From Amphiscolops sp. MND2022 (lineage: Eukaryota), in assembly GCA_964187785.1 (NCBI GenBank), contig OZ076409.1, positions 34,164,001 to 34,228,000 on the forward strand: DNA of 64,000 nucleotides. The letters run 5' to 3'. The notes beneath the pieces are model-generated. The model worked only from the letters and a program-made list of their open reading frames with translations. It was not told the origin of the DNA and did not search any database. This document shows positions 8,582 through 41,616 of this stretch, one piece after another; the stretch's first letter is position 1, and every line of letters begins with the position of its first letter. Both the position numbers and the translations under genes were made by a program.

Positions 8582-8821
8582 TGTAGACCGTTTAATTGGA
8601 TCATGTTAAATAACATTACAGGTGAAACAACTCATATTGGGTTACATGTATAGCATGTGAAGAGAAAATGGTAAATTGACACAAGGGCCATAATACATGG
8701 CACTTCAAAATTTGCACTATTTATGGAAACCAGCTTCTCATTTGGGAAAGCTTCGGAGGAAAATGGAAAAAGGACTGAGAGTTTACCTCAGTTTCAAGGG
8801 TGAAAATCATCAAAATTTATG
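8582..8821 (-). repeat. Remnant of the 3' LTR of element B
   Basis: About 240-bp direct repeat of 20906-21145. A deletion joins it to the middle of ORF3. Confidence 0.85.
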
Positions 8822-8829
8822 GTAATATT

Positions 8830-14488: not shown

Positions 14489-14711
14489 ATGTACATAGTG
14501 TACATTTGTGCTCTGTTTGTTTCTTTGTATTTATCGTAAACTTAATCTGAACTTGTTCGATATATTGTTGTACTTCCGCGGCCTTATTTGTACGTCACTG
14601 AGTCTATTTTGTTGTGTTTATTTCATGTCAAAAATTCGTAGTCAGAGTAGTCCCAAGTAAAAATCGTCAGTTAGTCCACGTGACTATCGGGACACTAATT
14701 TACATATCTGG

Positions 14712-17700
14712 CTAATATCTGTATTCATCAGAAAAGTTGGGGTTGGGGTTAGGGTTAGGTCGAAGGTTTTATTTCCCTCATCTGGGACTAAAATTTTCTT
14801 CAGTTTTCACATTTTCCGATATTCCGGGCACTTAACCACTAGGTATTAATTTCATTCTCGTTGAGGTCACTTTCATTCGTTAGCTCGCCGCTGCGTTGTT
14901 CATTTTCATCCGCGTTGCAACGTTCATCTTCAGTGACGTAACAGTCCACTGCGCCGCTCGCGGCGTCGTTCGGCAAGCGTGTGGCCGTGTCTGGCCAATC
15001 ATCTTTTCGCGTTTCAAATAACTCGTAGTCGAAGTCAACTTCCCATGAAATAGTATACAAGTCGTCTTGCGGTTTTACTATCTCTTCGTCAAGCTGCAAT
15101 TTTTCATCAGAGAATTGTCCTCTAATGGCGTGTCCGACACGAATTTCTTTAATCTAATTCGATGTAGTATTTGCGTTTTGTTTGTATTTATTCGACACAC
15201 GATGTGATTGTTATTGGACAGTACCTTCTGAACGACATAAGGGCCAATCCATGTTTAATCTCTGAATGGAATTTTTGACGCTTTGGCTGTCCGCTTTAGG
15301 CTGCAGGATGAAGCAATAGTCTTTTTCAGTAGTCTTTGGAGCAGCTTTAGCCTTCCGTACTTCCGTACTAGCTTTAGTCATTGTACTTCAAATACGACTC
15401 ATTATGTTTTTCTTGGTTTGATCTATGAAGATTCGTGTTCTCTTTTGTACCTCTTCCGCAAATTCCGTTGTTGGTAGGGAGTTTTTATTTGGATTTTTTC
15501 CTAATTTGTGATCTAGGACGTTATAGGGGATTCGCCCATGAAAACTTTGCTCGGTTCACAACCAATGCTCGAGTGATAAAGCACAGCTAGTGGCAAATAG
15601 TTATGCCATTGGCGTCTATATTCCCCCGAGGCCATGTTCAAATTAGTTTTGAGGGAGGCATGCGTCCTTTCTAATTTGCCTATCGTTTGCGGGTGTTTTG
15701 TAGTTGCGCATTTGAGTGTTATACCCAAAATTTGAAATATTTTCGCTACGATGGTCGATGTAAATGCTGACCCCTTGTTCGTGATGAGAGTCGTAGGTAA
15801 GTAAGAGTGTTTTGTCCTGATGTCAATTATCACCTTGGCCACATTGCAGGCTGTCGCCTCAGAGGCTGTTGCCTCATTTATTATTTCGGGTGCAATTACG
15901 TTGTTTGGGACACGCTTGTCCTTGGCACATGTTTCACAGACTTCTACCCATTTTTTGACACGTTTTCCAATGCCCGGGTAGTAATACTTCTGGCGAATTT
16001 CCTGTAGCATTTTAGAGATTCCCGTGTCAATATGCCGTGCCATGTATTGCCTGTAGTAACTCTTTCGATAAGTGTTACGTCAATAAGATTTGATGACACT
16101 TAACTTCTCCTGTTTCATCATAATAATGTCGCGTCAGAATTTCGTCCTTGAGGTTTATGCGGTCTAACTTGTTCAGATAATGTTTATACCGAATGTCCTG
16201 CTGAAGGAGTTCTTCAGAATTTTCCTCCTTTTGGATTTTTGATTTCAATTGCAGCAAAATCGGATCTTTAGATTATTCCAACAGTATTTGATTTGTTCTG
16301 CGCAATTTCTGTGTGAATTTAGTAATTGCATCCACGTTATTTTCTGAAACGGCATCGATTTGGATGACGGTCTCGGAGACGTTGGGTCCAGTTTCAGATT
16401 GCCTCTTCCGTTCCCAAATCTGTTCTTCTGTTTCATCGTCCTCCTCGGTGTAGAAAACTTGTTCCTTCTCAGACACGCCGGCTGATTGGACATTTACCTC
16501 AATGGGCTGAGCTGCAACATCTGCGCGTATTTTTCAGACCATTTTTTCAGAGGGATCCATTGCCATACGTGACAGGTAGTCCGCCGCTGTATTGATTTTG
16601 CCTGGAATGTGAGCTACTATAAAATTGAACTGGATGACAAAATCACAAGCATTCCAGAGTGGCGGTGGTATTACCTTGCTCTGAAAGAACCTCGTGACCA
16701 ATTTTTTATCCGTAAGGATGATTACTGGCTTGTGTGTCCCCCAGAATATATGTCCGAATTCTTTGAAGGTGTAATATAAAGCTAGGAATTCCTATACGTA
16801 TATTGACATTTCTAATTGGGAAGGAGTGAAAGTTTTTGAATCATATGTAATTGGCGCATAGGACTTTTTGACAGAAGCATACTTCTGATTTGGGTCATCT
16901 TCAGTGAGTATGGCATATCCTGCTGCTGTGAAGCTGGCATCTGGCATTAGGGCAAGCTGTCGATTTGGCAGAGGTTGCTTCAGGGATAGCTGGCTGCATC
17001 TATCTTTTTGCTGGTGATGCTCTCTTTTTGAGATTTGACACCTTCAGGGGTGATTGTCCTTCCTAGGAAATCGATTTCGGTCGCGCCGAAGTGGCACTTG
17101 TGCATTGCCAATCTTAATCCGGCCTCTCTAATGCACTCGAATGCTGCTCTCCAATTCCTGATTAGTTGATCAGCATCGTTGGCTGCAATGCCAATGTCGT
17201 CCACGTATTGAGCGCATTGATCTGCTTTTATGACGCGGTCTAGGTATTCTCTCATGAAACTAGAGAAGGCCGATAGGGCCGATAGGGCTAGTCTCCTGTA
17301 GGCAAAGGATCTGCTGGCAAAATTGAAGGCAACATCTCTATGGACCTTTGGTCCGCCATTGGGAGACAGTGGTACGCCTGCGAGCAATCAAGTTTGCAAA
17401 ATATATTCATGCCTGCCATGTGCTGAGCAGCATCAGTCAGTGTGCTTACTGTAGGTGGTAATTGCTAATGTAATCATCGAGATTAATTTATTGATTTTTC
17501 TAAGGTCGACCAATAATCGTAACTTCCCGTTGGGCTTCTTTTGTGTGAAAATGGGACTGGCATACTTTGAGAATGGTAATGTCGTGATGATACCATGTTT
17601 ATGCAGTAATGCCGAATCGACCAAAATGTCATCTTTCAAGTTGACTGGCGTTGGTAAGCTCTGGCTGTAGGCGGGCGAGTCGTCCTTCGAGGTTAATTCG

Positions 17701-20695
17701 ACCGTGAACTCCTCATCCATGCCGATATCAAACCTATGTCGGGCAAATATATCATGGAGTTCCACTAAGAGAGCTTCTATTTGTTTTATCTCATTCTGTT
17801 GTAACATTGATTCTTTCCAGTCTAATACTGAGGAATTTCCGACGAGATTCTGCGTCTTCTTGCGAATTGAGTCTTTCGGCTTCTTGTCAATTCCTCAATT
17901 CTCCTAAAATTCTTTGCTGAATTGGCGTATGGGACGCTTCGTCCCCTGGGTTTTCGGGTGGAAACCAATATTGTTCGTACTGGTCATTATTTCTGTTCGC
18001 TTCAAGAAGGCTGCTAATGTAAAATATAGCATATTCTTCATTTTCGTTGAATAGATGCCAGGTGGACACTGGGTCTATTAGCGTGACGTGTTTCATCTGT
18101 TCGGGGTTAATAACTGAGAAGTTTGCAATGTGCAATCCTTTCTTATGTTTGAAGTGTTGCTCAGGGGAATTGTTGACGTGGATCCTCGTAGTCTTTTCGT
18201 TTAGTGTGACTATAGCGGCGCAAAAGGTTCACTTTCATCGTTCAGTAGATCACTGGGTTGTAGTATGCCGGTGACCGCATTTTCTGCGTAAATCTGGGAC
18301 TGAATGGGTATAACTGTGTGGTCATTTGGCAGAATAATTTCGTCCTCGTGGTTGAGGATGGGTTCCATGACATTTGAGTACTTGTGGTCAGCCGTTTTTA
18401 ATTACATCGAGAAAAAAGTGAAATTTAGTTTTCCTTGGCGCATATCTAGGACTTTATGGTTTCTTTGCAAGAATATCAATCCATTTATAGGGCTGGATAG
18501 CTTTTCCATTACTTTGAAGATTTCGTCGAACTCAATGTCTCCTACTTCACATTTTAATTCAACGGTACTCTTCGGCGTTTCTAGATCTCCGTTAACGACC
18601 ATTATTTGAAATGATGGGCAGGTCCCTCTTTTACAATAGATGGAGGCGCTAGTAGCTGTATTTTCCTGAGGTCGGCTTCCGGCATTGCACTGGAGTGTGC
18701 CCTAGTGTCAATTAGGCCGTCCAATGTCAGTTCTCCGAAGTCCATTGGGAAATATAGCATCCGCCTTTTGAATTTGAGTCCAAGGTTGGTGGAAAGGTAA
18801 TATATGATGGTTCTCCTTCCTTTTCCACTAAGATGAGCAAGAAGGTCGATTCGTCTAAGCGGCTATGTTGGCCTTCATAGTCTTCTTGCTGTTGGGGTTC
18901 CCCTGTTTCTTCTGAAATCGCTTCTGTATTTGGTAAAGGAAGGAATTGAGTCTCAAAGTCTTTAGTGTAGTCAAAGTCATAGTATCGGTCAGGGCGATCA
19001 TTGTGTACTTCTTTGTAGGTTTTGATGTAGGCCTTTTCCATTTGTTGCTGCCAGACAACGGACGGGATGCCATTGGTGTCCTTGATGTATTGGCGAAAGG
19101 TAATAATTGGAGGATCTGATATGACATATTGTCGAACCGACATATAGTCATGTATTTGGAGTCGTGGCAAAATTAAATTTTTGAATCGGGGTTTTTGGAG
19201 TTGGTTTGGCTTGAACTAGCAATTTCCGAATCCTTGGTCCTTTTGGGCCTTTCTTCGGAATTTGAGGAATTCGCATCTCTCTCTTGTGCTTGTGTCCTCT
19301 TGGGCCGCAGGTGAGCGCCAGCGCCTTGCCAGCATCTCTCAGTTGGGTAATTCTTTTTCCCACATGTGTCACACGGTGGGTACGTTGGACGCTCTGGTTT
19401 CTTGCCATCTTTTTCCTCCATTTTTTTTCTTCTTGAGTTTAGTAGCGCTTTTGTAGCAATGGCCTGTTGCTTTGCAGAAGAAACATTGGGCTTCCTTATT
19501 GGTGTTAATGCCGTTGGACAGCAAGGTATTGTTTTTAGAGGACGCCCAGGCCATTGTGGCCATTGGCAAGTCGTCTGATTCCTCCAACGCATTATGTTCT
19601 AGTTCTTTTCCGAGATGCGCGACTATTTTTTCAGTTGTTCCATTCTCTAAACGGGCCATGTTGGCTGATCGGTTCAACTTTGGAGGCAGTTTTGCGTACA
19701 ACAAGCTGTCAATCATGCTTTTCACATTTTCACCAAAAGCTTGTTCTGCCCCCTGGTTGAGTTCTTCTAAGAAGTCCGGCTATTTCATTGTAGTAGGATC
19801 GAACGTAAGTCTGTGCCATTTATGTTTGGCCGTGGCTTGAGATTCCGGTTTGACGTACTTTCTCCGGAATATGCCTAGCACGTCCTCTAAAGTTTGGCGG
19901 TTTATTGAGTTTATGTTCCTGAATGTTTGTAATGCCCCCTTGCGTAGCAGCGAGTGAAAATGGTTAATTTTCATCTGTCCTGTCATAGCTGGTTGCATTT
20001 TGATCATCGCGTGGAACAAATCTTCGAAAAGCTCGAACTTGTCGCTCTTGCCGTCAAAGGTCAGTTTGAACTAGTCTGATGGTCATCGATTCGTCCAGTC
20101 AGAAATTCAGGACTTTGCTGTTGGGTGTCGGTAGCTCCTGTCACCATGTAATGACTACGACCCGTGGTGTCCCTTAAATCACACGCAGACCGTGAGTCTC
20201 TTTTTGTAAGTTTCGATTTCGACCCGGATGAACATTCCCTATTCTCCTGACTATTTGGCGACACACCGGCTTCAGAGTCCGTGTTTCCTTAAGAGGACAT
20301 CGAACTCACAATGTTTTGAATCTCAGGGATAACTCTCTCAGCTATAGCAGTGCTAATGACTCTATTTATTTGACTATGCATCATAGACATTATTGAGTCC
20401 ATCTCTTGAGATAATCTGATATCACTGACAGGTCCCAAAGGATTGTCTAACACCGTTTTGCCTTGGGGGGATTGTTTTCATATGCAAAACTTGCTTTCTG
20501 GTCTCTTAGATGCGTGTTAGACTCAGTGTCTCCTTGTACTGATGATTGTTCAATAGCATCGGCTAACTCTCTCTCTCTCTCTATGAGATTACAACCTCCA
20601 TTTCCTAGCATAACGTCCAATCTATCTATATCGGACAATATTTCCATCTCTCTAGATTTTCTAGCTTTCGCTTTCTGACGTCTAGTAGAAGGCAT
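14712..20695 (-). pseudogene. gag-pol: gag-pol of element B, heavily disrupted
   Basis: Start MPSTRRQKAKARKSRE; gag RRKYVKPESQATAKHKW; RT KKPNGKLRLLVDLRKIN and QYVDDIG; integrase HPQTIGKLERTH; end NLRPNPNPNFSDEYRY. All match element C. Confidence 0.95.
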
Positions 20696-20905
20696 AAGAG
20701 ATTATTGCAAGAGGTAAGAGTTTAAATTGAGTTCTCAGGCTAGCAAACAAAGTTTTATTCCAATGGGTATTAACGAACTGATTGTGACTATCTCAAGGAA
20801 AATTGTGTTTTCGGGACTACAAGTCCCGGTTATTTATATTCAACACTGCATGACTTCCAAGATATATAGTGTCATCAATCTAACTTTACAACAAGAGATT
20901 TGTTT

Positions 20906-21704
20906 TGTAGGCCGTTTAATTGGATCATGTTAATAACATTACATGTGAAACAACTCGTATTGGGTTACATGTATAGCATGTGAAGAGAAAATAGTAAATT
21001 GACACAAGGGCCATGATACATGGCACTTCATAATTTGCACTATTTATGGAAACCAGCTTCTCGTTTGGGAAAGCTTCAGAGGAAAAGGGGAAAAGGACTG
21101 AAAGTTTACCTCAGTTTCAAGGGTGAACTACAACCAAAATTTATGCGCATCCGTAATAGCAATTTACTACAGGCCTTATGGGCCGCACAAGTTTACTAAT
21201 TGCATTTCTGCATAGTATATTGCATTTCAAAGTGGACTGGTAGTCCCGCTGCCATAGCACCGACAAGATGAATAATATAATTGCTGTACTAAACGGCGTT
21301 GTTCAACAAACATACTGCACTGTGATTGCTTGATATTCTCATGGACTGCTGGTCCAAGGCGACAAGCAAAGGAACATTTGAACACGTTTCCTTTGCCTGT
21401 ACGCTTTGGTGTCCAATTATTAACACAACTAATAACATATTGCACTTTTACATGTGTAAAGCAACGAAATACCAATCTAACATAAATAAATGGACTGAGT
21501 AGAAATAATTTTACATATGGTCCGGGTATTAAAACTAAACAACATCATAATTTGACATAAAAGTAGCGGATTCTAAGCAATAACTTCAAAGTTTGTTGAG
21601 AAATTAGTTTTAATTCAGGGGGAAAGTGCTGGGAAGGTCCCCATGACAGCTGTAGCTTATTGTGTAGAAATTTCCATCGCAGGCGGCAGCCCGCGACAGT
21701 CACA
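20906..21704 (-). repeat. 5' LTR of element B (inner boundary uncertain, may extend to 20783)
   Basis: Begins TGTGAC-TGTCGCGGGCTGCCGCCTGCGATGG on the minus strand and contains the repeat shared with 8582-8821. TATAAATA lies near 20831-20838 and an AGTCACA ends at 20783. Confidence 0.75.
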
Positions 21705-25578: not shown

Positions 25579-26900
25579 TGTAACTGTCGCAGGCTGCCGC
25601 CTGTGATGGCACTAAGATCACGACAACAGCGGAAGGGCAAGAGATCGCGACCGGAACCTTACCAATCTACTGAGGAGAAAACATTCAAAATGCAAACTTT
25701 CATATTGTTCCGTTAATTACACTTGTTAATGTTGCTGACTCCATTTATATATATATATATATATGTTTTGCTAGTATTAGTCTGTTAGAGCCAACAACCA
25801 AAAGGCTCAAATGATGTGTAGTTATTTGCAAATTTGGAAACGCAGTACAACAATGCATTTGCAATAATAAATAGAAGCAGCTAACGAGCGTAAAGGAAAC
25901 GAGTTCAAGTAAACGTCACTCCAATTCCGGGGACGTCACTTGAGCTTACTACAATTAGCCAATCACGTGCTGTAATTCTTGCTGTACTATTGTTGTATTT
26001 GTTAATTGGCCGGTTAAGGCCACCTGACGAAATTCCACTCTCATTGCTCACTACTTTGGTCAAACGGCCGGTTCCGGCCGTGAAGCAATAATGAAAAGGA
26101 ACTAACTTATTACATCTGTACTTCATTAGTAATAATACAATTGTTCTTTCATGTTATTTAAATGTTCATTGTTGATAATATGAAGCTTTGTTTGGTATTT
26201 GGCCGAGTAAGGCCCATTGAACTAATATATATTGTTTCAACTGGTACTCTGGTCAAATGGCCGATTGTGGCCATTTCATGCATATTTGTGTTTTGTTGTT
26301 CAGTTAACCAGATATTAACCCGGAACTAGCATAAGTTCATCTCCGAAGCAAATGAAGGTGCTTATGGTATTATATTATCTACGTGATCCAAGCATATGTA
26401 AAATAGACAAATAAGGCCATTTTCCTTCACTTCCCTATTGTGCTGTCTGTACTTACGGATTTAAGCCTATTCCGGTTTCAACATGAAATATATTTTCATG
26501 AATAGTAGATTGATACCACAGCCCTTATGTGCGGTTATACATTCCATTCTCAGTGTAATATATAATAAATCTTGTGTCGGCACGTGCCTCCACCTCACTT
26601 TGCGTGAGGTATGTAAACAAAGGTATTTGTTGACACTTTGATATGCATGCCTTAATCGGCAGTTCGTTTGAAGCTACTATTTTGACTACATGACCCATAA
26701 CTGCCATTCCCTAGATGTCCCCGAAGATATGTGAATATCAGGGTTTTCATCATGGAGCTAATGATCATATGATACTACCAACCTAACTAGTTATGTAAGG
26801 AATGTGATTGTCATTCCCTAAAAGGTATAAATAGTGTTATCCCGTTGGGGAAATCATTAATTCCTTTCATTTTGCTCTAGTTAAGTTTAATCTACAAACG
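25579..26900 (+). repeat. 5' LTR/leader of element C (inner boundary not determinable)
   Basis: Its start is repeated at 41572. TATAAATA at 26826-26833 lies about 130 nt before the gag ATG. Confidence 0.65.
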
Positions 26901-26954
26901 GCACCGCTGTTATTTCCGTATTGATCAATATATTGTTAATTCGGAATCGTTTCT

Positions 26955-28676
26955 ATGCCTACTACTAGAAAACAGAAAAAGGCAAGAAAGTCAAGAGAAG
27001 CAGAAATGCTATCTGACTTTGAGAATTGGGATATTATGCTCGGAGGAAATCACTTTGATAGCAATGAGAGAAATGAAAGTGTGAATAGTAATCAGGCCGG
27101 CAGGCCAGAAAGCTTATTTGGAGGTGAATTTGGAGATGAGAATGAGAATGAGTTCCCAAACCCGGGAAATAATGGACCGAGTCCAAATACCGAATTAGGC
27201 CATAATTCAATCAGAGAGTGTTCAAGTGTTGAAATCAATAGATTGTCGAGTGAGTTAAATTCCCGTATATCTCGAGAGATGGATGAAATGATGAATAGCG
27301 TCAGTGTTCAGATTCAAAGGGCCATAAATGAGGCAATCAGTAGCCAAATTTTGCCTCAAATCCAAAATGCAGTTATGGCCGGGTCGGGACAATTGACCAA
27401 AGAGAGATGGAACGTTCCGGCCGAGAGACCGGAAGGATATTCCGAAATACTGCAAAACTTAGAACCTAGGAACAATTCTAAGAGTAAACAGACCAACGAC
27501 CGTCCCAAAGACGGATTCACAAGCACGAATTCTCGTGCTTACGACATGGTGACAGGAGAAAACGAATCTCCAATCGAAGTTCCTGAGTTTCTCACGGGAC
27601 GAATACCATCCACCAGTCATCTCAACAGATCAAATGATGACCTTCCCCTGCTCGACACGACGATCCCAGCACAAGAGAGAATTGCTACGGCTGCCGACTC
27701 CGATCCCATCACCCGACTGGCAGACGTCTTGACCACAATGCAAAATAGACCGACAGCCCAACAACTCACTATACGCCCAGTCAATTCAAACACAATGACT
27801 TTTGATGGCAAGAGTGAAAAATTCGAGCTGTTTGAGGACCTGTTCCACACGATGATCAAGATGCAACCGGAAATGACGGAACAGATGAAAATAAATCACT
27901 TCCACTCACTGCTGAGGAAGAATGCTCTCCAAACCTTCCGGAACATCAGCTCGAGCAATAGACAGACTTTAGAGGACGTATTGGTAATATTCAGACGAAA
28001 ATACGTCAAACCCGAATCACAGGCGACTGCCAAACATAAATGGCACCGTCTAGTCTTCGATCCCAACACGATGAAACTGCCAGATTTCCTTGAAGAATTA
28101 AATCAAGGGGCAGAAAAAGCATTCGGGGATCACGCGCAGAAAATGATTGACAGTTTGCTCTACGCAAAACTGCCACCAAAACTGAAGCGGTCTGTAAACA
28201 TAGCCAGACTCGAAAACGGCTCTTATGACGAAATAGTTGCTCATTTAGAGAGAGAGTTAGAACTAAATGCCCTCGAGGAATCAGACGATCTACCAATGGC
28301 CACAATGACCTCCTCGACAACAAAACCCAAGACTCCTCTAACTACTGGGCAAATGTCTGATATCACTTGCAACTATTGCAAGGAGAAGGGCCATTTGGTC
28401 AAAGACTGTGAAAAATTGAAGAAGAAAAAGGAAAAAGATGCCCAACAAGGCAAACAAACTCAGAAAAAGACGTATCCGGAGTGTGGCACTTGTGGTAAAA
28501 AGAACCACCCGGAAGAAAGATGTTGGCAAGGTGCTGGTGCGCATTTCAAACCCAAACGCACCAGACCAGATGACGCTAATGACGGTAAACCCAATTCAAA
28601 GGCACAGAAACCACAAAACAAATCAACATCTTCCAACTCACAGGCCTCATCTTCCAATGATGAGTCAAAAAACTAA
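26955..28676 (+). CDS. gag: Gag of element C (573 aa)
   Basis: Open ORF with capsid-like FDGKSEKFELFEDLF region and two CCHC knuckles (CNYCKEKGHLVKDC, CGTCGKKNHPEERC). Confidence 0.95.
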   Translation: MPTTRKQKKARKSREAEMLSDFENWDIMLGGNHFDSNERNESVNSNQAGRPESLFGGEFGDENENEFPNPGNNGPSPNTELGHNSIRECSSVEINRLSSELNSRISREMDEMMNSVSVQIQRAINEAISSQILPQIQNAVMAGSGQLTKERWNVPAERPEGYSEILQNLEPRNNSKSKQTNDRPKDGFTSTNSRAYDMVTGENESPIEVPEFLTGRIPSTSHLNRSNDDLPLLDTTIPAQERIATAADSDPITRLADVLTTMQNRPTAQQLTIRPVNSNTMTFDGKSEKFELFEDLFHTMIKMQPEMTEQMKINHFHSLLRKNALQTFRNISSSNRQTLEDVLVIFRRKYVKPESQATAKHKWHRLVFDPNTMKLPDFLEELNQGAEKAFGDHAQKMIDSLLYAKLPPKLKRSVNIARLENGSYDEIVAHLERELELNALEESDDLPMATMTSSTTKPKTPLTTGQMSDITCNYCKEKGHLVKDCEKLKKKKEKDAQQGKQTQKKTYPECGTCGKKNHPEERCWQGAGAHFKPKRTRPDDANDGKPNSKAQKPQNKSTSSNSQASSSNDESKN

Positions 28677-31148
28677 CTTCGCCACGACTCCAATACAATC
28701 AACTAATATCCGTCCGTCAATACATCAGGTCGGATCCTCCAACAAAAACTTTTCATCAATATACACAACAATTGATGGGCTATCCCTCTGTTGTCTGGCA
28801 GCAACAGATGGAAAAAGCTACCATCATCACCTACAATAACACCCATTTATTCCAGAAACCAATTCCTGTTTGGGACCCTGATTATACTACTACCTTCACT
28901 ACCCGATTCAGGCCTATTCCCCTGGTTGACAATTACAACCCTACCTACATAGATCCAGACTACGGCAGAGACCCCTATTGGGACACAGAAATCTACAACC
29001 AGGAACAACTACAATTCCAATATGTCTTAGACGACATCGAGCACTATAATAGAACGGTCCACGAGAACCCTCCAATCACCCACAATAAAAAGACCAGAGC
29101 ACTAGTTGAAAACTGGCAAATGAATGATGGCACCAACCATCCAGTGTTCCCAAACCCATTAGGGACCGAGACCCATGAAGACGTTGCTCAACCAATACCA
29201 CAATCACTATTAGACGAGAAGCAGTTCCAGAATGTCTTAATCACCAGGGACGGTGAACCAGACTGTATACCACTGTCAACCAACATCAATCTCAAATGCA
29301 AAAAACGCATGTTGTACTTCCCCATGGACTTTGGGGAATTGACCATAGACGGACTTATTGACACTGGAGCGCTGTCCAGTGCAATTCCTGAAATGGACCT
29401 CCGGAAAATTCGACTTCTATCTCCACAATCTGTCATCCGGGAAGGTCCGCCTCCAAATTTCCAAATAATGGTTGCTAATGGGCAATTGGAAACTCCTAAG
29501 AGTACCATAGAGCTCAAATTTGAAGTTGGTGACATTGAGTTTCATGAGAGTTTTATAGTCATGGAACACCTGACAGGTCAAACCCGAATCACAGGCGACT
29601 GCCAAACATAAATGGCACCGTCTAGTCTTCGATCCCAACACGATGAAACTGCCAGATTTCCTTGAAGAATTAAATCAAGGGGCAGAAAAAGCATTCGGGG
29701 ATCACGCGCAGAAAATGATTGACAGTTTGCTCTACGCAAAACTGCCACCAAAACTGAAGCGGTCTGTAAACATGGCCAGACTCGAAAACGGCTCTTATGA
29801 CGAAATAGTTGCTCATTTAGAGAGAGAGTTAGAACTAAATGCCCTTGAGGAATCACACGACCTACCAATGGCCACAATGACCTCCTCGACAACAAAACCC
29901 AAGACTCCTCTAACTACTGGGCAAATGTCTGATATCACTTGCAACTATTGCAAGGAGAAGGGCCATTTGGTCAAAGACTGTGAAAAATTGAAGAAGAAAA
30001 AGGAAAAAGATGCCCAACAAGGCAAACAAACTCAGAAAAAGACGTATCCGGAGTGTGGCACTTGTGGTAAAAAGAACCACCCGGAAGAAAGATGTTGGCA
30101 AGGTGCTGGTGCGCATCTCAAACCCAAACGCACCAGACCAGATGACGCTAATGACGGTAAACCCAATTCAAAGGCGCAGAAACCACAAAACAAATCAACA
30201 TCTTCCAACTCACAGGCCTCATCTTCCAATGATGAGTCAAAAAACTAACTTCGCCACGACTCCAATACAATCAACTAATATCCGTCCGTCAATACATCAG
30301 GTCGGATCCTCCAACAAAAACTTTTCATCAATATACACAACAATTGATGGGCTATCCCTCTGTTGTCTGGCAGCAACAGATGGAAAAAGCTACCATCATC
30401 ACCTACAATAACACCCATTTATTCCAGAAACCAATTCCTGTTTGGGACCCTGATTATACTACTACCTTCACTACCCGATTCAGGCCTATTCCCCTGGTTG
30501 ACAATTACAACCCTACCTACATAGATCCAGACTACGGCAGAGACCCCTATTGGGACACAGAAATCTACAACCAGGAACAACTACAATTCCAATATGTCTT
30601 AGACGACATCGAGCACTATAATAGAACGGTCCACGAGAACCCTCCAATCACCCACAATAAAAAGACCAGAGCACTAGTTGAAAACTGGCAAATGAATGAT
30701 GGCACCAACCATCCAGTGTTCCCAAACCCATTAGGGACCGAGACCCATGAAGACGTTGCTCAACCAATACCACAATCACTATTAGACGAGAAGCAGTTCC
30801 AGAATGTCTTAATCACCAGGGACGGTGAACCAGACTGTATACCACTGTCAACCAACATCAATCTCAAATGCAAAAAACGCATGTTGTACTTCCCCATGGA
30901 CTTTGGGGAATTGACCATAGACGGACTTATTGACACTGGAGCGCTGTCCAGTGCAATTCCTGAAATGGACCTCCGGAAAATTCGACTTCTATCTCCACAA
31001 TCTGTCATCCGGGAAGGTCCGCCTCCAAATTTCCAAATAATGGTTGCTAATGGGCAATTGGAAACTCCTAAGAGTACCATAGAGCTCAAATTTGAAGTTG
31101 GTGACATTGAGTTTCATGAGATTTTTATAGTCATGGAACACCTGACAG
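28005..31148 (+). repeat. 1572-bp tandem duplication (gag 3' half to protease)
   Basis: 28005-29576 is repeated at 29577-31148, with GTC microhomology at the junction and at least 7 substitutions. Confidence 0.95.
28667..28673 (+). promoter_or_regulatory. -1 ribosomal frameshift heptamer A AAA AAC (second copy at 30239-30245)
   Basis: Directly precedes the gag TAA. The -1 frame (KKLTSPRLQYNQLISVRQY...) is open into pol. Confidence 0.88.
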
Positions 31149-34100
31149 GTCCAATTATCGGCCTAATGTTCCTTCAACGAAATCATACAGTCCTGGACAT
31201 GAGACAAGGAATACTGAACTTCCCGTTCTTCTCAATGCAGCTCAAAACAGCTGACCATAAATACTCAAATGTCTTAGAACCAATTCTCAATCCCATTGAG
31301 ATAACCATTCCGCCAAATGATAGAGTCCTAATTAGGACCAATTCCCTACTGTACCCTGAGAATGCTGTCACTGGAATTTTACAACCGAGCGACCTTCTAC
31401 ATGAAGAAGGCGACATCACATTCTGCCCAGCCTTGGTCACTCTGAATGACGGCAATATATCGATACCAGTGAGCAACTTCACAGACCACCCTTATAAACT
31501 CAAAAAGGGACTACATATTGCCAATTTCTCTGTCATGACGCCAGAACAAATGAAGTATGTCAAACCGGTAGACCCGGCATCAACCTGGCACCTTTTGCAG
31601 AATGACCAGGAGCAAGCAGCCCATTATGTCAGCAGTCTCATCAAAACCAATAGAAATCCACAAAACTCCGAAAATTATTGGTTCCCAACTCCAGAAAACC
31701 CTGGAAATCCTGAGGAACACACACCCATACAAAAACAAATCCTAAGCGAGTTACAGGCCTTACAGGACCTGGAGACACTCGACCCCACCACAGACGCAGA
31801 ATCGCGTGCAAAATTCTTAGAAAACTTTGACTGGAAAGATTCCACCCTTACTCCTGAAGAGAAGGAGAAAATTGAGGAATTGTTAGTGGAATTCCATGAC
31901 ATCTTTGCACGACACCGATTTGATATAGGCATGAACGAGGAATTCAAAGTGAAACTGACACCTAAGGACGATTCCCCAGCCTATAGTCAAAGCCTTCCAG
32001 CTCCTATCAATCTGAAGGAGGACATCCTAGTCGAATTAGTCATGTTGCACAAATATGGCATAATAACCACACTGCCGTTCTCAAAGTATGCAAGCCCAAT
32101 ATTCGCCCAAAAGAAACCAAATGGGAAGCTACGACTTTTGGTTGACTTGAGAAAAATCAATAACCTCATCTCGGATGATTATAAAAACAATAATCACCCT
32201 GTTAGCACCCTGGTTGATGCTGCCCAACACTTGGCAGGCAAAAAACTGTTCTGTAAATTAGACTGTTCGCAGGCATATCACTGCCTACCAATGGCCGACC
32301 AACGCTCAATCGAAATGTTGGCTTTCAATTTTGCCAGTCGTACATTAGCGTACAGACGCTTGGCACAAGGCCTTAGTCGGTCACTATCCGCATTCTCGAG
32401 TTTCATGAGGGAATACCTCGACAAAGTCATTAAAGCGGATCAGTGCGCCCAGTATGTGGACGATATCGGCATCGCAGCCAATGATGTTGACCACCTCATA
32501 ATGAACCTGAGAGCAACATTCAAATGCATTCAGGAAGCAGGCCTTAAGTTGACAATGCACAAATGTCACTTTGGTGCAAAAGAATTGATTTTCTCGGACG
32601 GACTATTACCCCACAAGGCGTCAAACCCCAGAAACAGAACGTGCAAAACTTTCTGGAAAAGACCAAATTCCCAAAGTCGAAAAAGGCTTTGCAGCGCTAC
32701 TTGGGATTCTTGAACTACTACAGGAATTATGTCCCAAGACTCTCCGAACGCCTTGCTCCATTCTACAAGATGCTCAAAAGTGACGAAAAGGTCCTAGTAT
32801 CGAAAGAATTAGTCCAACAATTCGAAGAAATCAAAAAAGCACTCGACAAATGTTGCGATTTAGCCCTACAACAGCCTATCCCGAACAAACAAATCGCACT
32901 AATGACTGATGCAAGTTTTGGTGCAGCTGGATATGCGGTCTTAAAAGAAGACGATCCAAACCAGAAATTCACATCTCTCCGAAAACCCTACGCACCGGTG
33001 GCCTATGGATCAAAAACCTTCACCCCAGCCCAGATCAAAATGTCAGTATATGCCAAGGAATTTCTGGCAATTTACTTTGCATTCAAAGAATTTGGACATA
33101 TATTCTGGGGTGCGCCCAAACCGGTCATTATCCTTACCGACAACAAAGCCACTACGAGATTTTTCCAAACGAAAATAATACCCCCAGCCCTGTGGAATGC
33201 ATGCGATTATGTGATTCAATTCAATTTTGTCATAGCACATATCCCGGGAGCACAGAACACAGCAGCTGACTATTTGTCCCGATTGGAGGCAGATCCGAAG
33301 GATAAATTAGTCATGAAAATCCGTGAAGACGTGCAAACTTTACCCATTGAGATAAATGTTCAATCTGCGGGGGTATCACAGGAAGAACAAATATTCTATA
33401 CGAATGATGATGACGAGACAGAGGAACAGTATTGGGCAAGAAAAGAAGCAATCAGGAAAAATCCAATGACTGATGAGCCCACTGTTACCATAGAAACTCT
33501 GTCAACCAATCTGGTCAAACAACAACCAGACATCCAAGTCCGATTAAAGAAAACAAACCAGATAATCATCGAGCAGTCCAAAGATGCAGTATTGCAACAA
33601 TTGAAGGCAAAGCTCCTTCATGAAGACTATTCAGAAAACATACTGCAACAGGATGCCCGATATAGACACTATGCAAATAATCTGGAACGAATTGTACTCA
33701 AGGACGAAATCCTGACGAGGCAATATTTTGATGAAACAGGGAATGTTAAATACCATCAAATTTTGCTCCCGCAACACCTACTTCGGGAATTGCTCCACTC
33801 CCTTCACGGGACAGCGCATAAACATCCCGGGATTTCAAAAATGTTGCAGGAAATCAGACAAAGGTATTACTACCCTAGCATGGCTAAACACGTCAAAAAG
33901 TGGGTAGAAGGGTGTGAACAATGTGCCAGAGACAAGAGAGTCCCTAACGCAACGATCACACCTGAGCTGCTCAACTTGCCCGAATGGGACCTTGGACCTG
34001 AAGACGCCATGCAGATTGACCTATTGCCGAATCTTCCCCCAAGTGGAGGGTATGAAAATGTCCTAACGGCAATTGATGTTTTCTCCAGATATTTATTCGC

Positions 34101-35448
34101 TTATCCCCTTACAGACGCATCAGCGATCAATGTGGCAAAAGCGCTCATTGACATAATGACCAAGCATGCATATCTGCCAACGACTCTTATTACTGATAAG
34201 GGTACTGCATTCACTTCTACGATTATTGCGGAGGTTACGCAAATTTTGGGCATTACACTCAAATGTGCAACGACAAAGCACCCGCAAACAATCGGGAAAT
34301 TAGAGCGGACCCATGCCTCATTAAAGACAAATCTCAAAATGGCATGTGGGGAATACCGCCGACAATGGCATAAATATTTGCCATTAGCAGTACTTAATCA
34401 TAATACGAGTTATCATGCCAGTATTGGTTGTGAGCCAACGAGAGTATTCCATGGCAGAATTCCCTATAACATTCTGGATCACAAGCTTGGAAATAATCCA
34501 AACGAAAAGATCAACCCTACAACCGAATTTGCAGAAGAAATCCAAAACCGGACAAAAATCCTAATTGACAAAACGAAGCAGAACATTATGCAGTCGTACA
34601 TCAAGTACAAAGAATATTACGACGGCAAAGCAAAAGCTGCTCCATTGAAGGAGAATGACTACTGTTTCGTCTTACAGCCGAAAGCGAATCATCAAGGATC
34701 AAAAATTCCATTCCGCGATTACCGTTGGGTTGGACCATTTGTAGTCCAAAAGGTTTTGCCAAATGAAAACTACATAGTACGAAGGATCAATACGAACAAA
34801 ACTCAAATTTTGCATCGCATTCGCCTTAAAAGGTTTATTCCCAATCAACCGCTTGAGGACAATTTCCGAGAACAACGTCTGCAGCCAGACGAAGAAATTG
34901 TCATTCCGCAAGACGACCTATACGTCATAGCGTGGGAAACAGATTTTGGAGAGCAGCTAGTTACACGAGACAGCGAGACTATTCCGACTAGCGTGCCGAA
35001 TGGCGAACAGCCGAACACGGCGGAAACGAATGCAAATGACGGAGACGAGACCGAAGCGGATTACATAATCACGCGAGAAGAATTAAACAACGACAACGCG
35101 GCACACAGCCGGAATAAACGCTTAGATGATGACGTCACTGAAAGAAATAAAGCTACTGCAGTGACAGAAAATACCAAATCTGATTGGCCGAATCCGGCCG
35201 TTTCCCCAAAAAACCAAGAAAATTCTTTGCCGAGTACGGCAGGTGGACCGGAAAATGATGAAATTTTTTCAGAAAGAAATTCAATGAATGAAAACGATGC
35301 ACAAAACTCTCCCAAAAGGGGGGATGATATTATCGTGCCCGAAATATCTGAAAATGATGCTAGAAATGAAAGTCTGAGCCCTAGAGGAGGGAAATATAAC
35401 CTCAGGCCTAACCCTAACCCAAACTACTCAGAAGACTTTAGATACTAA
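30239..35448 (+). CDS. pol: Pol of element C (PR, dUTPase-like spacer, RT, RNase H, integrase), one frameshift near 32583
   Basis: LIDTGA; YVDD; TDASFGAAG; H-H-C-C; IDLL...IDVFSRY...TDKGTAF...GKLERTH; WVGPF. The 1-nt loss in an A run may be a mutation or a sequencing error. Confidence 0.95.
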
Positions 35449-35673
35449 AGAATTGAATTTTCCCGACAGTGGGAGTTCTTTTCTTCTATCTTTTTTATTT
35501 CCTTTGACCACTCAAGTGTTTTTTTTCAATAAATAATTGGGGCATTACAAACGATCCCTCGCAAGGAAAATAAATACGGGATCAAGAAACCAAGAACAAC
35601 AAGATGAAACAAATAATACAAACAGAAATGAACAAAGTTTACAGTCTGAAAGTACATAAATACATATGTACAT

Positions 35674-38600
35674 TTAGTCTTTAGAGGACCCTTGAACGGC
35701 TTTCTTGGATGCAGACGAAATTGTAGAACTGCTACTACCTGCTCGTTTCCTCTGCTTCTTGGAAGGCACCTTTACAGCTGAATCATCAGGGATGGACGAG
35801 GCGGTATCCTTTTCTATCCGGACAGAACGAGTAGAAGGAACAGCAGTAACGGCCTTATAGGAAGTGAGAAGACTCTTGTAGATCTTAGACCTACCAAACT
35901 CATCCACAAGGGTCCAAGGATCATAGTCAGCAGGGAAAGCAGAACGCTCGAAAGAGGAACTGAGAACTGAGAACTTCTCTAAATTGTCATCCGAGCAGCA
36001 ATGAGAAATGGAATTGGGCACACAGGAAAGGTAACTCTGGCAAGGCACCACTAGATCGGCAAAACGGCCCTGACACCCCGTTGTGTCAACACTCCCGAAC
36101 AGTACTGGGGGATATTGGGGGCTAACACTAGTCAGACACAAGCAGCAGAGTTTGAACAGATAGAACAGGTGCTCATGAGTTTGGAAAAACTCAAGCCCCA
36201 TTAAAAAGTCTATAAGATCGACGGAATTCTCCATTAGATCGAAATCTGGAGGATAGTTGACCCGGAGGTAGTCCAACAGAGCCAGATATTCGTCTCGACA
36301 ACTGTTCTCGTTGGCACTAGTGACCCATGATCGAAGCTGGAAAGTAGAATATAGCACATCGAAGTGCCGGAGCCCGACCTCAGAAGGCCTTTTGAAAAGC
36401 ACGAAGGGATCAAAAGCAGCCAACCCCTTTATCACTTCAGAGCTCAGACCAGCTTGACTAAGGACTTGCTTGACTAGATACTGAATGAATTGCAACGCCT
36501 CTTTGACAAAGCTGCTGGTCGTCTCTGCAACCGTCTTCTCGATAGCAGCCTTCTCCGATTTCTTGTTCAGGTGTGTGACTTCTGCACTCTGTTTACTAGC
36601 TGTAGCTATCCGGTTTGTGAGACGGTGCCGGATAAGGAAGTCTTCCTCACTCATGAATTTGCCCTCGCTCACCTTAAACCCGAGAAGGAGGAACCACGAG
36701 TTCTCGAGGGGAATAGTTTCTGGCAAATAACATCGGGCGCACAGTTTTGAAACAAAGCGGCAAACCTCCCCACAGAGGAAGAACGAAGCATCACGGCGAC
36801 CCCGCAGATTGATGGCGAAACTGGTAACGTCTGAAATACAACAGTCGTGATTATGAGAGGAATAGGATATACAAACGAGACAATGTTGATAGTGATTCAA
36901 CAACTCAAGGAATTAAATTATCAGAACGATGTCTTAGTGCACTGACGTGAAATGAAACCGTATACTCACAATCGCCAATTATACGTTGGAAGAATTCCAA
37001 TTTAGCAACGAAGAAGAAGTCACAGATGATGGACCACTCGAAGCTTTGGACCTGATTGTGGACTCCTTGCATTCCTTGGTGAGGGGTGTGCGTAGTCAAG
37101 TACTGTCTGATTGCCTTCCAATTCTTCACAAGTTCTCGGCAAAGACTGGGGAGGCTTGGCAAATCTAATTTGCAGGTGTCGATGGCCTTAAATGAACCAA
37201 ATTGTCTCTCAAATGCACCTACCTTCAAACCTCTAACTACATGAGTGAACTTAATATACTTACTCTTCCCAGATCAGGAGATTCCAGAACCCAGTCCTCA
37301 CCAGTAGCAGCTCCCAATGAAACGATCAGGCACTTTAGGACAGAGAAGAAGTCGATCCGTCCAAATACGCTGTAGGTGGGCTTGTGCATCATCTTCTGAA
37401 GCTGCAGCTGCTCAAAACGAAAGCAACTCTGCACTGCTCGGGGAAAGAACTCATTGTGATCTATGGTTTGGATCAGCTCTACAGGACATCCTGAACAGGC
37501 GACGATATCGGCTTTGGTTGAAACCACAGATAGTAGTCTGGATATCGAACCCAAGTCTCCAGTCAGATCAGCGGAGGGAAGCCCACTTCGGCACACAAAG
37601 ACGCGACAAAGAGAATCGCCTTTCCAGAACTTGATGGACATGAGCCTATTCACGCCCACATTCTCAAATTCGATAGCGAAGCATTGGGTGGTAGCAATTT
37701 GCTCTGCTAATTCACTCATGGCACAATTGAAAATGTGTTGGAAGACGGCCTAAAGAAGAAAAAGACAATTATGAAATGTGTAGGGAATCTATACCCTCCC
37801 TGAGTAAATGTTAGCCTGAAAGGGAACTTACCGAGATCCGTTCTTCCCCCCAATCAAAGTCGCAATATCTAGTTTGATAGTTCGTCAGAGATCCTATCTG
37901 AGCCCACAGTCTGCGGAGTACTCCAAGATCACCGTGGGTTTGCACGAAGTCTCCAACGAGGTGTATTTGTGTCTTGACCCTCGATGCAGGAGTGACGAGT
38001 GTGGTTGACGTCCCTTTCACGAAGTCATCATAGAATGGGAAGCGTTCTCCGATGTCTATTAGTTCGACGTGTATAAATTTGGGGAGTTCTTTCGCCAGCT
38101 CAATCTTAGTGAGGATCTTGCCGTTCCGCCCTCTGACCCGATGCTGCACTTTCCCAGTCACTGGATCAACGCTTTTGAGGTGCTCATAGCGCAACCTTTG
38201 ATCACGCCTGAGGTGTTTTTCGGTCCTGTGGTGACGCAGAATCTCCAGTGTGCCCTTAGTTTTTACAGAAATATTCTTCTTACATATATGGCACCACACC
38301 ATATAAGGATTATGAAGGGGATCAGCTGGCCCGGAGATGAACGATCGGGTCCAGCCAATTTTGGAGAAGAATTCCTCCTTCATTGGAATGCCCCGTGTGT
38401 GGCCGCGCCGTTTCTTCTTGGGCAATTTGCTAGAGCTCGAAGCTAGAGGCTGTGCTGGGGCCGTCTGGGTGCGTAATTCAGAGAGCGTGGCATCGAGACT
38501 GGATTGATCGGTGGATTCAAAACCTGCTTGGGTAGGGTCAGCTCGAGAAGGTGGAACGCGGCTGAAAGGTTCCTTGAAAGCCTGTGAGATGAGTGCCATC

Positions 38601-39836
38601 TCGCCAGAACTGTCTGTATCATTGAAAGACTCTAACCCTCTACTCTCTTGGCCAGCACTGGATCCTTCAGAGGTGTCAGTCCCTGATCCAGAACAGTATT
38701 CAGCCCGCGAACTATCTTCCGAATCACTTTGCAGCCCTGGGCCGGGAGTTTGAGCCCTTGGCCGGATCTTGAAGTGGTCAGTTCGGGCACTGGAAGTGAC
38801 GGGAGCCCCTCTAACCGCTCCGATTACCATCTGCTCCATGGTGGAGTAGGACATTTTCAAGGTCTCGTCTGTAAGGACCCTCAGAAGATGATAGATTTGT
38901 GGCTCCGTGAACGCCACAGTTCTATGACCAAGCGGGAAGGTGATAGTACTGGCATCATCATCGAAATACTGTTTCAAAATGGCCCTACTACGGCCAGAAA
39001 GCTCCCTGATCTTGGGGTCCTGAGCTGCTGAAGTGGAAGGACGCATGGGATCAGGCATCGCAGCGAAAGTATCAGTTGACGACCCTTCTACTGCTGTGTC
39101 TGCTACATTACCTATTGGAAGGTAGGCATACAATTGAGGAGCACTAGCCTGACTGGATGTGTCGCCGGCTTCTTCAGTTCCAGTCTCATCGCCCAACCAC
39201 CTGACTTTTGGTGTTCCTGTTGGCAGCTTGGGGACATCACATAGGGAAGAGCTTTCGTCCGTTTCAATCTGGAGAAATGAAGCTGCGGACATTTCGGCAG
39301 GAGTCACGTTAGTGGGCAACAATTCCGGTAATATAGTCCTCGAGGAAGGAGCAATCGTTAGCCCAGTCTCTAACTGAGTCAAATTGAGCTCGTCGGTTTC
39401 ACCGGCTACGCCTGAAGTTGGGGTACTAGTACGAAAGACCGGTGCAGTAACCCGTGCTTCGACCCCCGGAAGAAGGACCCTCAGGTATACCTCTCTCAGT
39501 CTCTTGTTCTCTTCTCTCAGAGTTCTCCGCAGTATGTCCCTCTGATTGCTGTTGGGCCTGTTCAAGGAGCTGGAGCTTTTCGTCGGCATAAGATGTTACA
39601 TCAACGTTGCTGTCTGTGCTGCTGGGAGACCTTGGTGGCCTGATTGGAGGAAAAGGAGGAGGAGACAATTGTGGTCTTCGGACGGTAGAGGAAGTACCCA
39701 CAGAAACAATCGTTTGAGTATGTTGGTCGGGAATGTCCGCTGCAGAGTTAGTTTGTGTTTGCAGTTCGTCTCCTGGCTGGTTTGCTAAGCAAAAGGAGAT
39801 GAAATTTGGCGGTGAGCTTCCTTGAAAAAAATCCAT
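35674..39836 (-). CDS. Antisense spliced gene of element C: BED-type zinc finger plus inactive hAT-transposase-like protein (about 1205 aa from ATG 39589)
   Basis: Exons 39589-37832, 37749-37264, 37186-36970 and 36830-35674 join in frame through GTAAGT/GTGAGT...AG introns. The conserved start (MDFFQG..FISFCL, 39836) is in another frame. The hAT call rests on motif pattern. Confidence 0.85.
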
Positions 39837-40871
39837 TTTACCGCATTAGAAAACTTCCGGAAGTGTTTGAAAATCTGAACGAAACGTGTTATCACGCGTT
39901 TACTAATGGAAACAGGAAGCATGTTGTGAACGGATTTAACTCTGATCAAGTTAAATTTTAGTTCGGAATAAAAACAAACCAACCTTCAGATGAAGACAAC
40001 CTGGGACTGAATTGGATGTGGGAACGAGTCCTTGTCCGGCTGTAGAAGGTGATGGATGTGGCCGAAACCGGCTGGAGAAGGGGGATCAAGGGTTGCTCTG
40101 GGATGAAGAATCGGCTAAGAAGTGTCGTGTGCGGGGAAATAAGTATCAGTCGAGAAGAGACAAATGGAAGATAATCAGAATTAAAATGGAATTGAAATTG
40201 GGTAGAAGAATTGAAGAAATTGGAAAGTTGGAGTTCGTGGTTGAAGATTATTACCAGACTAATATTATGGATTATCTACATATTTATTCTGTACATGGAG
40301 TCTGCCAGCGAAGTGTACAATGGACTTTGTTATTTACAGCTTATTTAGTTAAAGGGCCGGTTATGGCCGTTTGCCCTGTTTTGTTTCGCCGTTTTGTCAA
40401 GTTACCCTTAGTTAGAATTTTCGCCATCTTGGATTATTTAGATTTATTATTTTCGCCATTTTTATTATTTAATTTTACAGTTTATCGAAGCTTAACGCTG
40501 ATTGGTTGAAGCCATTTTGAAAGAATTCCGCGTCGCATGTCGTTAATTGCTATCAGGCAAACTGTTAATTACCCACTTGAAACGGGTGAAGATAATATTT
40601 ACGACTCAAGCGTCATTAACACCTCTCAGGGTGATGGTGCTGATGGGGGGTAAACACTGAGCTATCAAAGGATGCCGACTACTTATAAAATTCCATTCAG
40701 AGATATTTACGTCGGATCAGGGTAATTCACCGGTAACTCAACCACCGAATATGAATTGCCGGGAAAAGGCCCGACTTGGCCAAATTCTTGAGTTGGTGAA
40801 TTCATTCCACTTTGAAACTTCAAGCAAACTAGTCGACTCCCCTGCTCAGCAAGATTGCGAAAAAACTAATA

Positions 40872-41616
40872 ATGCAAAGATATAACTTAACCAAGAAGCT
40901 CTTCGACTTTGAAGAAGAGGATTCAGAAAAATCAGCAAATTCGATAATCTACATATCCAGCGACAGTGAGAATGAGGCTTCAAGCGATTGGGACTCAGAC
41001 TGGTCTACTGATACGGAGGCTATAATAGACAGGATCGAACGGGAAGTTAAAGCGGCACCAATTCCTATTGCCGGACGGGGGATGACAATAGAAAGCTCAG
41101 ATGACGAAATGGCGGCAGGACCCAGCTACATTCAGTCTGTTCCGCCTTCTACCCCGAAATTGGGATTTGAGTACTTCAACAGAGAAATGTGTCTAGCGCC
41201 GTCCAAAAGGCAGAAGAAGACGAGGGTTGAGCTCTGCACTACTGTTTTGCCTGTTTTGGAATCTCCATTATCTCCTCCCGACCACGAGAGGGGACCAAGT
41301 ATTGATACCCCTCCTGTACAGTCGACCTCAGGGACCTTCTACGCCTCGTACCATGTGCAGAATATCAAGCCTTACCAGGACGTCAGCGAAAGTCTACACA
41401 CGGGCTGTATGGTATGTGGTAAATCGAGAGAGCAGATAAAAGAGGAAAAGATCAACTGGTATATGGAGAGATCGACGCCCAAGAGTGAACCAGCCTATAT
41501 CACCGCATTGCGACGAGAAGCATACTCTAATGGCTTAAATGCAGGTAGTCTACTTTTCCTATCACCCGCAGTGTCGCAGGCTGCCGCCTGTGATGGCACT
41601 AAGATCACGACAACAG
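40872..41616 (+). CDS. Accessory sense ORF3 of element C, unknown function; predicted 262 aa ending inside the LTR
   Basis: Open into the gap. The 5' LTR copy supplies ...TTAEGQEIATGTLPIY* (stop at 25671-25673). Has an acidic N-terminus and CMVC, and a homolog in element B. Confidence 0.85.

Follow-up and report, generated by a model that had tools for sequence, protein, structure and literature searches.

A candidate antisense, intron-containing accessory gene in a Ty3/gypsy-type retrotransposon lineage of Amphiscolops

How can a gene interrupted by several introns stay in an element that multiplies through RNA? Retroelements copy themselves via RNA and are therefore expected to lose introns, yet a long terminal repeat (LTR) retrotransposon of Amphiscolops sp. 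MND2022, here called element C, appears to carry a large gene with three introns on the strand opposite to its own gag and pol. We studied it in a stretch of 64,000 nucleotides (nt) of contig OZ076409.1, called the window throughout, whose coordinates are used below. A sequence-only reading of the window had proposed that this is a long-maintained gene of the element, under selection, rather than a chance nested insertion. Our analysis supports this view, which was favoured by each computational check proposed with it: with a probability of roughly 0.8, the gene is an accessory gene of a large Ty3/gypsy-type lineage, in which it occupies, in reverse orientation, the space between pol and the 3' LTR.

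Past the pol stop, the list of open reading frames (ORFs) gives four minus-strand blocks (35674-36912, 36905-37273, 37237-37749 and 37811-39595). The sequence-only reading had joined them into a protein of about 1205 amino acids (aa) through three introns, and this proved correct: excising 37831-37750, 37263-37187 and 36969-36831, each with a GT start, an AG end and a pyrimidine-rich 3' end, leaves one open frame of 1205 codons from an ATG at 39589 to a stop at 35674-35676. On the minus strand, the predicted gene thus consists of exon 1 (37832..39836, open here from ATG 39589), intron 1 (37750..37831, 82 nt, phase 0, GTAAGT...CTTTAG), exon 2 (37264..37749, 162 codons), intron 2 (37187..37263, 77 nt, phase 0, GTAAGT...TTTAAG), exon 3 (36970..37186, 72 codons plus 1 nt), intron 3 (36831..36969, 139 nt, phase 1, GTGAGT...TTTCAG) and exon 4 (35674..36830, 385 codons and the stop, with the conserved C-terminal end QGSSK). 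The upper limit of 39836 proposed earlier is the start codon of the family, as seen in a sibling copy, L050, which reads without interruption from the equivalent ATG (MDFFQGSS...) for 1288 aa. In the window copy this ATG lies in a different frame from ATG 39589, and a single N-terminal frameshift evidently separates the two.

The gene lies inside an element whose domain order and LTR features are those of an LTR retrotransposon, putatively of the Ty3/gypsy rather than the BEL/Pao type. On the plus strand, the 5' LTR occupies 25585..27525; its start (TG...) is exact and its end approximate, set by homology with the 1.9-kb LTR of the sibling, which aligns to 25583-26079 and, near the LTR end, to 27230-27458. 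Its first 45 nt (25585-25629) recur exactly at 41572-41616, the beginning of the plus-strand 3' LTR, the remainder of which is lost in an assembly gap (41617-41816). Between them, gag-pol (26940..35448, plus strand) encodes a zinc knuckle, aspartic protease, reverse transcriptase (RT), RNase H and integrase by Pfam (RVT_1 5.8e-20, RT_RNaseH 1e-15, Integrase_H2C2 2e-16, rve 3.7e-11), and the protease, RT, RNase H and integrase hits are ordered along 28664-35448 in one sense-strand reading unit. The gag piece scores just below threshold for DUF1759 (25.0 vs a cut-off of 25.4). The window copy is damaged, with gag-pol in five overlapping frames and pol in two, vs a single 1737-aa pol frame in L050, and it has a 1572-bp tandem duplication in the gag-protease region (28005-29582 / 29577-31154, 99.5% identical) that is missing from the sibling copy on another contig. 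That sibling shows the boundaries clearly: its gene lies within LTRs of 1945 nt that are 99.64% identical and end in TGTCGC...ATGACA (TG..CA), its insertion is flanked by a 5-bp target duplication (CTCAC), and a stretch beginning with TGG follows the 5' LTR where the primer-binding site is expected.

Two non-coding segments frame the gene. The spacer from the pol stop to the stop of the antisense gene (35449..35673, 225 nt) presumably holds the antisense 3' untranslated region (UTR), and 1.7 kb (39837..41571) separate the antisense start codon from the 3' LTR, a spacing of 1734 nt in the sibling copy. On the other strand, the latter segment also contains the plus-strand priming region of the element. 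Of 19 short inverted-repeat pairs, none brackets the gene with an arm in 35449-35673 and its partner in 39837-41571. The gene lies inside LTRs, flanked in the sibling by a 5-bp target-site duplication, and not within inverted repeats and 8-bp duplications of its own.

An older, decayed relative, element B, lies on the minus strand at 8581..21145, between direct repeats (8581-8821 and 20905-21145) that are 93% identical. Its pol, on the minus strand, stops near 14712, and its homolog of the antisense gene runs on the plus strand at 10486-14488, both within the repeats. This homolog is a decayed copy, with a frameshift and with stops that interrupt the reading frame of exon 2. Intact relatives of it are present elsewhere in the genome (L043, 1232 aa; L045, 1230 aa; L047, 1196 aa), and L049, like L050, is a further copy with an open spliced frame (1341 aa). 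In six copies the spliced frame is open over 1196-1341 codons, and the families involved share as little as 33-45% of their residues.

We read the introns at 10 loci (the two window copies, L050, L049 and L043-L048), and all 10 have the same three intron positions and phases with GT..AG ends, except that one acceptor in the decayed L046 reads AA. Intron 1 follows ...DW-x6 and precedes A-x-F-x-H-x-F in phase 0, intron 2 falls in phase 0 between PEL-x-K/R and AI, and intron 3 splits the codon that follows ...R-I-x-x-D in phase 1, at a D|Y position common to the B and C clades. The introns are 66-157 nt long. The earlier proposal that elements B and C share intron codons and phases while their intron sequences are unrelated is borne out, since identity between clades is 51-61%, vs 50-59% for shuffled sequence. 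Element B and its relatives have in addition a fourth intron. It lies in phase 0 (GVKNK|PQSLEW) and is present at six of seven B-clade loci, with the donor in L046 unresolved, and at none of the three C-clade loci. Because the protein has the same length across this point in both clades, the intron behaves as expected of a true spliceosomal intron; it would represent a clean loss or gain. We therefore describe the gene, from its genomic sequence, as having four putative exons (five in one clade), 1196-1341 codons and canonical introns at conserved positions and phases.

No intron-less (processed) copies were found among 150 scored exon-3 matches, a sample searched without any query spanning a junction. 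In one sub-family (G000:C13:38319684-38321204, C3:33873708 and C6:22567084), one open frame of 503-507 aa runs from exon 3 through intron 3 into exon 4; here intron 3 is retained, its length is a multiple of three and it is free of stops, and the spacing from exon 3 to exon 4 is normal.

The gene sits beside pol in every copy examined. We sampled eight 10-kb stretches (L043-L050), chosen across the range of identity, together with 30 C-family loci found through exon 4; these 30 include the window copy, and one of them, L002, is the same copy as L050. The 3' end of pol adjoins the gene at all 30 exon-4 loci, the two are convergent in all eight fetched stretches, and, overall, a pol of the same kind meets the gene tail-to-tail in 37/37 distinct copies (30 C-family copies and L043-L049). 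As noted from sequence alone, the gene ends about 225 nt from the pol stop in both elements: the distance is 225 nt in C, approximately 223 nt in B and between 218 and 260 nt in a further five copies. A first look across the genome gave 7870 candidates for exon 4, 7126 for the finger region described below and 5250 for exon 3, and among scored matches 95/107, 137/150 and 142/150, respectively, were free of stops. The lineage is large, young and diverse, and the family is very abundant.

Using Nei-Gojobori counts on spliced frames, we obtained the proportions of nonsynonymous (pN) and synonymous (pS) differences: 0.123 and 0.720 between the window copy in element C and L049, 0.024 and 0.113 between L047 and L048, and 0.178 and 0.820 between L043 and L045. 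Between clades, pN is 0.39-0.49 and pS is saturated near 0.8. The gene is, to judge by these counts, kept open by purifying selection between families, in line with the earlier view of it as a maintained gene. Within a family, the window copy and L050 give a ratio of nonsynonymous to synonymous rates (dN/dS) of 0.64, as expected of decay after insertion. Among the 30 close copies, pairwise diversity is 0.041-0.055 in introns vs 0.028-0.043 in exons; as the copies were chosen for their similarity in exon 4, the diversity of that exon is underestimated.

Linkage to one kind of pol does not mean a shared history with it. The kind of pol is the same throughout, but gene and pol have reassorted, a feature that the earlier reading had not noticed. 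L043 and L044 are 96% identical in the aa sequence of pol (RNase H-integrase) and 68% in the gene, L043 and L047 are 94% and 50% identical, and L043 and element B are 74% and 77% identical. Synonymous differences agree: pS in pol and gene is 0.147 and 0.801 for L043-L044, 0.220 and 0.793 for L043-L047, and 0.410 and 0.721 for L050-L049. Comparing L043 with L044 along their length, we found 93-98% of nucleotides identical over the first 600 upstream nt, 50-71% in the gene and 90-99% in pol, with the switch located at the spacer. The spacer is also the most variable segment among the C-family copies (pairwise diversity 0.172 vs 0.03-0.09 in the flanks), and blocks switch there. In the 30 copies, whose exon 4 is 94-99% identical to that of the window, the final 424 nt of pol sort into groups of about 95-99%, 85-88% and 80-82% identity, the spacer sorts into discrete types of about 98%, 82% and 77%, and pol groups and spacer groups occur in several combinations. 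By these comparisons, gene and pol reassort as modules within the superfamily, with the gene as the exchangeable module, and some gene versions are much older than the pol now beside them. Recombination in retroelements arises by template switching between co-packaged RNAs.

We considered whether local hypermutation, by editing of double-stranded RNA formed from sense and antisense transcripts, might mimic such discordance, and rejected it: in the 30 C-family copies diversity is 0.03 in the gene vs 0.09 in pol, and differences of the A/G and C/T kinds are only mildly unequal. With lower diversity in the C-family gene than in pol, in a sample selected through exon 4, and with little skew among the substitutions, we read the discordance as probable recombination.

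The region between gene and 3' LTR (the equivalent of 39837..41571) also stands out, with 71-77% nucleotide identity among B-clade families, vs 51-60% in the gene. This conservation suggests a cis-acting sequence. The idea that a further protein is encoded upstream of the gene was considered and rejected, as the similarity extends to all frames and is thus conservation at the nucleotide level. In L043, L044, L045 and L047, it is the upstream 1.2 kb that is better conserved in nucleotides than the gene.

What might the gene encode? Exon 1 specifies, in order, an N-terminal motif (MDxxxGxxPxxFISFCL, common to L050 and the distant clade), a conserved block at about residues 200-270, a Ser/acidic linker, a basic run and a zinc finger; the N-terminal half is rich in Ser and acidic residues. 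The basic run (KKKRR or RKRRK) lies about 40 residues ahead of the finger, a Cx2Cx16Hx5H motif from residue 432 onward that is present in 8/8 spliced genes and 113/120 database exon-1 ORFs. Pfam gives weak C2H2 hints on the finger at E 0.005 and zf-BED is not matched there; the spacing would fit BED fingers. Exon 2, modelled from an alignment of 56 sequences, has a beta-beta-beta-alpha-beta-alpha arrangement, the predicted core of an RNase H-like fold, a feature shared with hAT transposases. Exon 4 is modelled by AlphaFold as a large, entirely helical domain, with a predicted local distance difference test score (pLDDT) of 78. Taken together, the basic run, the C2H2 finger and the RNase H-like and large helical domains suggest that the product is probably a nuclear DNA-binding protein.

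These data can be assembled into a scheme for how the gene is kept. An antisense promoter and 5' UTR would lie in the conserved 1.2-1.7-kb region beside the 3' LTR, and the antisense mRNA would be spliced and end in the spacer at the end of pol. The sense genomic RNA would carry the splice signals as their reverse complement, in which form they would go unrecognised; because it is this sense RNA that is reverse-transcribed, the introns would be kept and copied at each round. The protein would then return to the nucleus and bind DNA on behalf of the element, in regulation or targeting.

Several points count against the proposal that this is an accessory gene with such a product. The splicing, the promoter and the poly(A) site are predictions from the genomic letters, and AATAAA or ATTAAA occurs within 420 nt after the stop in only one of six copies, that of the window (AATAAA). 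The copies we examined are best-scoring hits rather than a random sample. Fold models and homology searches were made exon by exon, and for exon 2 the model reaches no more than intermediate confidence (pLDDT 68). Pfam assigns no family to any exon at E<=0.01, none of 40 exon-4 sequences matches a hAT family at E<=1, hhalign comparisons with hAT elements of the same genome give probabilities of 0.1-0.3%, and a profile search of PDB sequences returned nothing.

The question of ancestry is bound up with these negatives. As a control, two hAT ORFs of the same genome, L065 and L066, match Dimer_Tnp_hAT (PF05699) at 4.2e-17 and 5.3e-17, whereas no match to this domain was found in exon 4 (0/40 at E<=1; 0.2% by hhalign). 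Transposase_28 (PF04195) has no match at E<=1 on 40 exon-4 and six finger or exon-2 sequences. Sequence searches yielded 765, 214 and 236 relatives, all exon-sized ENA ORFs without names and none a full-length model, a cluster look-up of 10 of the ENA relatives gave no names, and a search for longer homologues of exon 4 was uninformative. By these tests, no sequence method supports hAT membership. Structure gives a fainter lead: the best-covering match of exon 2 is Hermes 149-266, and Hermes entries stand at Foldseek ranks 5, 8, 11, 23 and 24, none of the exon-2 hits reaching E<=1e-3, so that the modelled fold bears a weak likeness to that of the Hermes (hAT) transposase. Among language models, the neighbours of exon 4 and the finger region (Dimer_Tnp_hAT, FAM200-GTF2IRD2-like, zf-C2H2_12, CGGBP1-like and zf-BED, with scores of 0.85-0.92) are leads as well. 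In gross order the protein is like the transposase of Hermes and domesticated relatives such as ZBED, GTF2IRD2, FAM200 and CGGBP1, with an N-terminal C2H2 finger, an RNase H-like core and a large helical region. It differs from hAT transposases in having no detectable sequence similarity, no Dimer_Tnp_hAT and no conserved second carboxylate, and in that no inverted repeats or 8-bp duplications surround the gene, which moves within an LTR element. That the ancestor was a hAT-like gene for a DDE transposase, taken up in antisense orientation, has in our view a little under even odds. Ordinary hAT transposons are abundant in this genome (2215 first-look PF05699 candidates), some with intact frames of 650-697 aa.

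As for what the protein does, a role as a regulator of the element or a tether for it is our tentative preference. In strand 1 of exon 2, all 56 sequences have E29, and E27 is conserved in 90% or more. Directly after strand 4 there is an invariant S86 followed by conserved G87-C88, and in the 10-locus alignment this S-G-C is invariant, with no acid there. An invariant Ser and conserved Gly-Cys where the second catalytic carboxylate would be expected make a regulator or tether likelier than a nuclease. A more specific proposal, which we think unlikely, sees the gene as a specificity module, whose product, a DNA-binding protein of transposase origin, would recognise the conserved region of its own element beside the 3' LTR, or a host factor. 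By analogy with the immunity region of phages or with retroviral env, it might then control transcription of the element, direct integration or mediate competition between sister families. If so, the old, diverged genes on near-identical pol and upstream backbones, with their sharp flank switches, would reflect selection for many types that are swapped by recombination.

The same residues bear on the idea that the gene encodes a working nuclease, a DDE-type transposase or integrase-like enzyme that would give the element a second way to move. The RNase H-like fold, the invariant E29 and the nearly invariant E27 would suit such an enzyme, but the position after strand 4 is the invariant S86 of S-G-C with no conserved acid, no terminal inverted repeats are present, and the sibling insertion has LTR ends and the 5-bp duplication typical of integrase. 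The protein is probably not an active transposase, and we regard the nuclease idea as improbable. Improbable, too, is that the gene is a passenger, an intron-containing DNA-transposon or host gene that once inserted into the element and has since been copied along without contributing anything. The transposase-like look of its finger and RNase H-like fold is what such an origin would leave behind, and the gene does evolve faster than pol (50% vs 94% aa identity between L043 and L047). Against this, frame, intron positions and motifs persist across saturated families with pN of 0.12-0.40 vs pS of 0.72-0.82, most exon-4 copies (95 of the 107 scored) are still free of stops, no inverted repeats bracket the gene, and its distance to pol is fixed at 218-260 nt. 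Accidental reverse-strand frames or a mis-called gene would explain the want of Pfam matches, but with 1196-1341 codons open after splicing in six independent copies, whose families have only 33-45% of residues in common, canonical introns at identical codons, pN far below pS and domain models at pLDDT 78 and 68, their likelihood is negligible.

Antisense genes in LTR elements have precedents. Plant Ty3/gypsy elements carry extra antisense ORFs between pol and the 3' LTR, as in Grande with gene23 (maize), RIRE2 (rice), Retand with TRP28 (Silene) and PvRetro13, and so does the fungal element Boty, according to two reports (PMC7264820, PMC11963269). These sources describe an own promoter for the Grande antisense ORF and nuclear or DNA-binding products, and state that the plant and fungal ORFs are present in most family copies, are single ORFs and in many cases contain Transposase_28 (PMC7264820, PMC11963269). 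The word "intron" does not occur in either paper (PMC7264820, PMC11963269), and a survey of annelid LTR elements (PMC8220671), in the passages searched, mentions antisense ORFs only in general terms in its introduction. The gene described here resembles these ORFs in its place, its opposite orientation and its presence in most family copies (37/37 here); unlike the plant ORFs, it has three to four introns, 1196-1341 codons, an RNase H-like fold without a Pfam match and, apparently, an animal host. It would thus be the same kind of feature as the plant antisense ORFs and, as its sequence indicates, not the same gene family.

The nearest retroviral analogue is HBZ of human T-lymphotropic virus 1 (HTLV-1), whose mRNA is spliced. 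HBZ and other deltaretroviral genes of this kind share with the present gene expression of an antisense gene from the 3' end, a spliced mRNA and a nuclear regulatory product, these traits being predicted here. HBZ differs in being a small basic leucine zipper (bZIP) protein with its first exon in the LTR; there is no relation in sequence or fold, and size and architecture differ. Engineered elements offer another comparison, as antisense-intron indicator cassettes rely on the principle that an intron antisense to the element cannot be spliced from genomic RNA. In those cassettes the intron follows the sense of the element, lies antisense to the marker and is lost on transposition, whereas in the window the arrangement is the opposite and the introns are kept. 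An antisense promoter in the 3' LTR of HTLV is mentioned in PMC7264820. In the literature we covered, most subscription journals and Repbase reports lying outside it, we found no LTR element with a multi-intron or transposase-like antisense gene. Three features seem new: a multi-exon structure that orientation preserves, a product of such size with a nuclease-fold architecture, and the reassortment relative to pol.

The rest of the window, which comes from a eukaryotic genome of 1.07 Gb, is dense in retroelements. A small LTR-like unit at 1640-6155 is bounded by 165-nt direct repeats (1640-1804 and 5991-6155, 95% identical); its minus strand carries ORFs for RT/RNase H and a zinc knuckle, and an antisense gene would not fit into it. 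In another retroelement, a minus-strand frame of at least 1093 aa (60717-63998) runs off the window; its integrase core, at residues 41-137, is followed by an unusually long extension of about 900 open residues without a Pfam match. Tandem repeats with a period of about 184 nt and copies 69-96% alike occupy 55556-57611. A 163-aa frame at 51819-52310 resembles the C-terminal half of a UDP-glycosyltransferase (Glyco_tran_28_C 8.9e-09, UDPGT 1.5e-06) and is possibly an exon or fragment of a host gene.

For genome annotation, failure to assign the exons of the antisense gene to the element will turn them into thousands of supposed host genes. For the biology of retroelements, a multi-exon gene kept by facing the other way would show in nature a principle that has been familiar chiefly from engineered reporters. 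Because their histories are discordant, gene and pol offer a concrete system in which to ask how retroelements exchange accessory modules and keep them diverse. Finally, a large gene that is conserved across many sub-lineages and thousands of copies, and that appears to encode a DNA-binding protein with a nuclease-like fold, suggests that an LTR element took over a transposase-like gene as an accessory factor.

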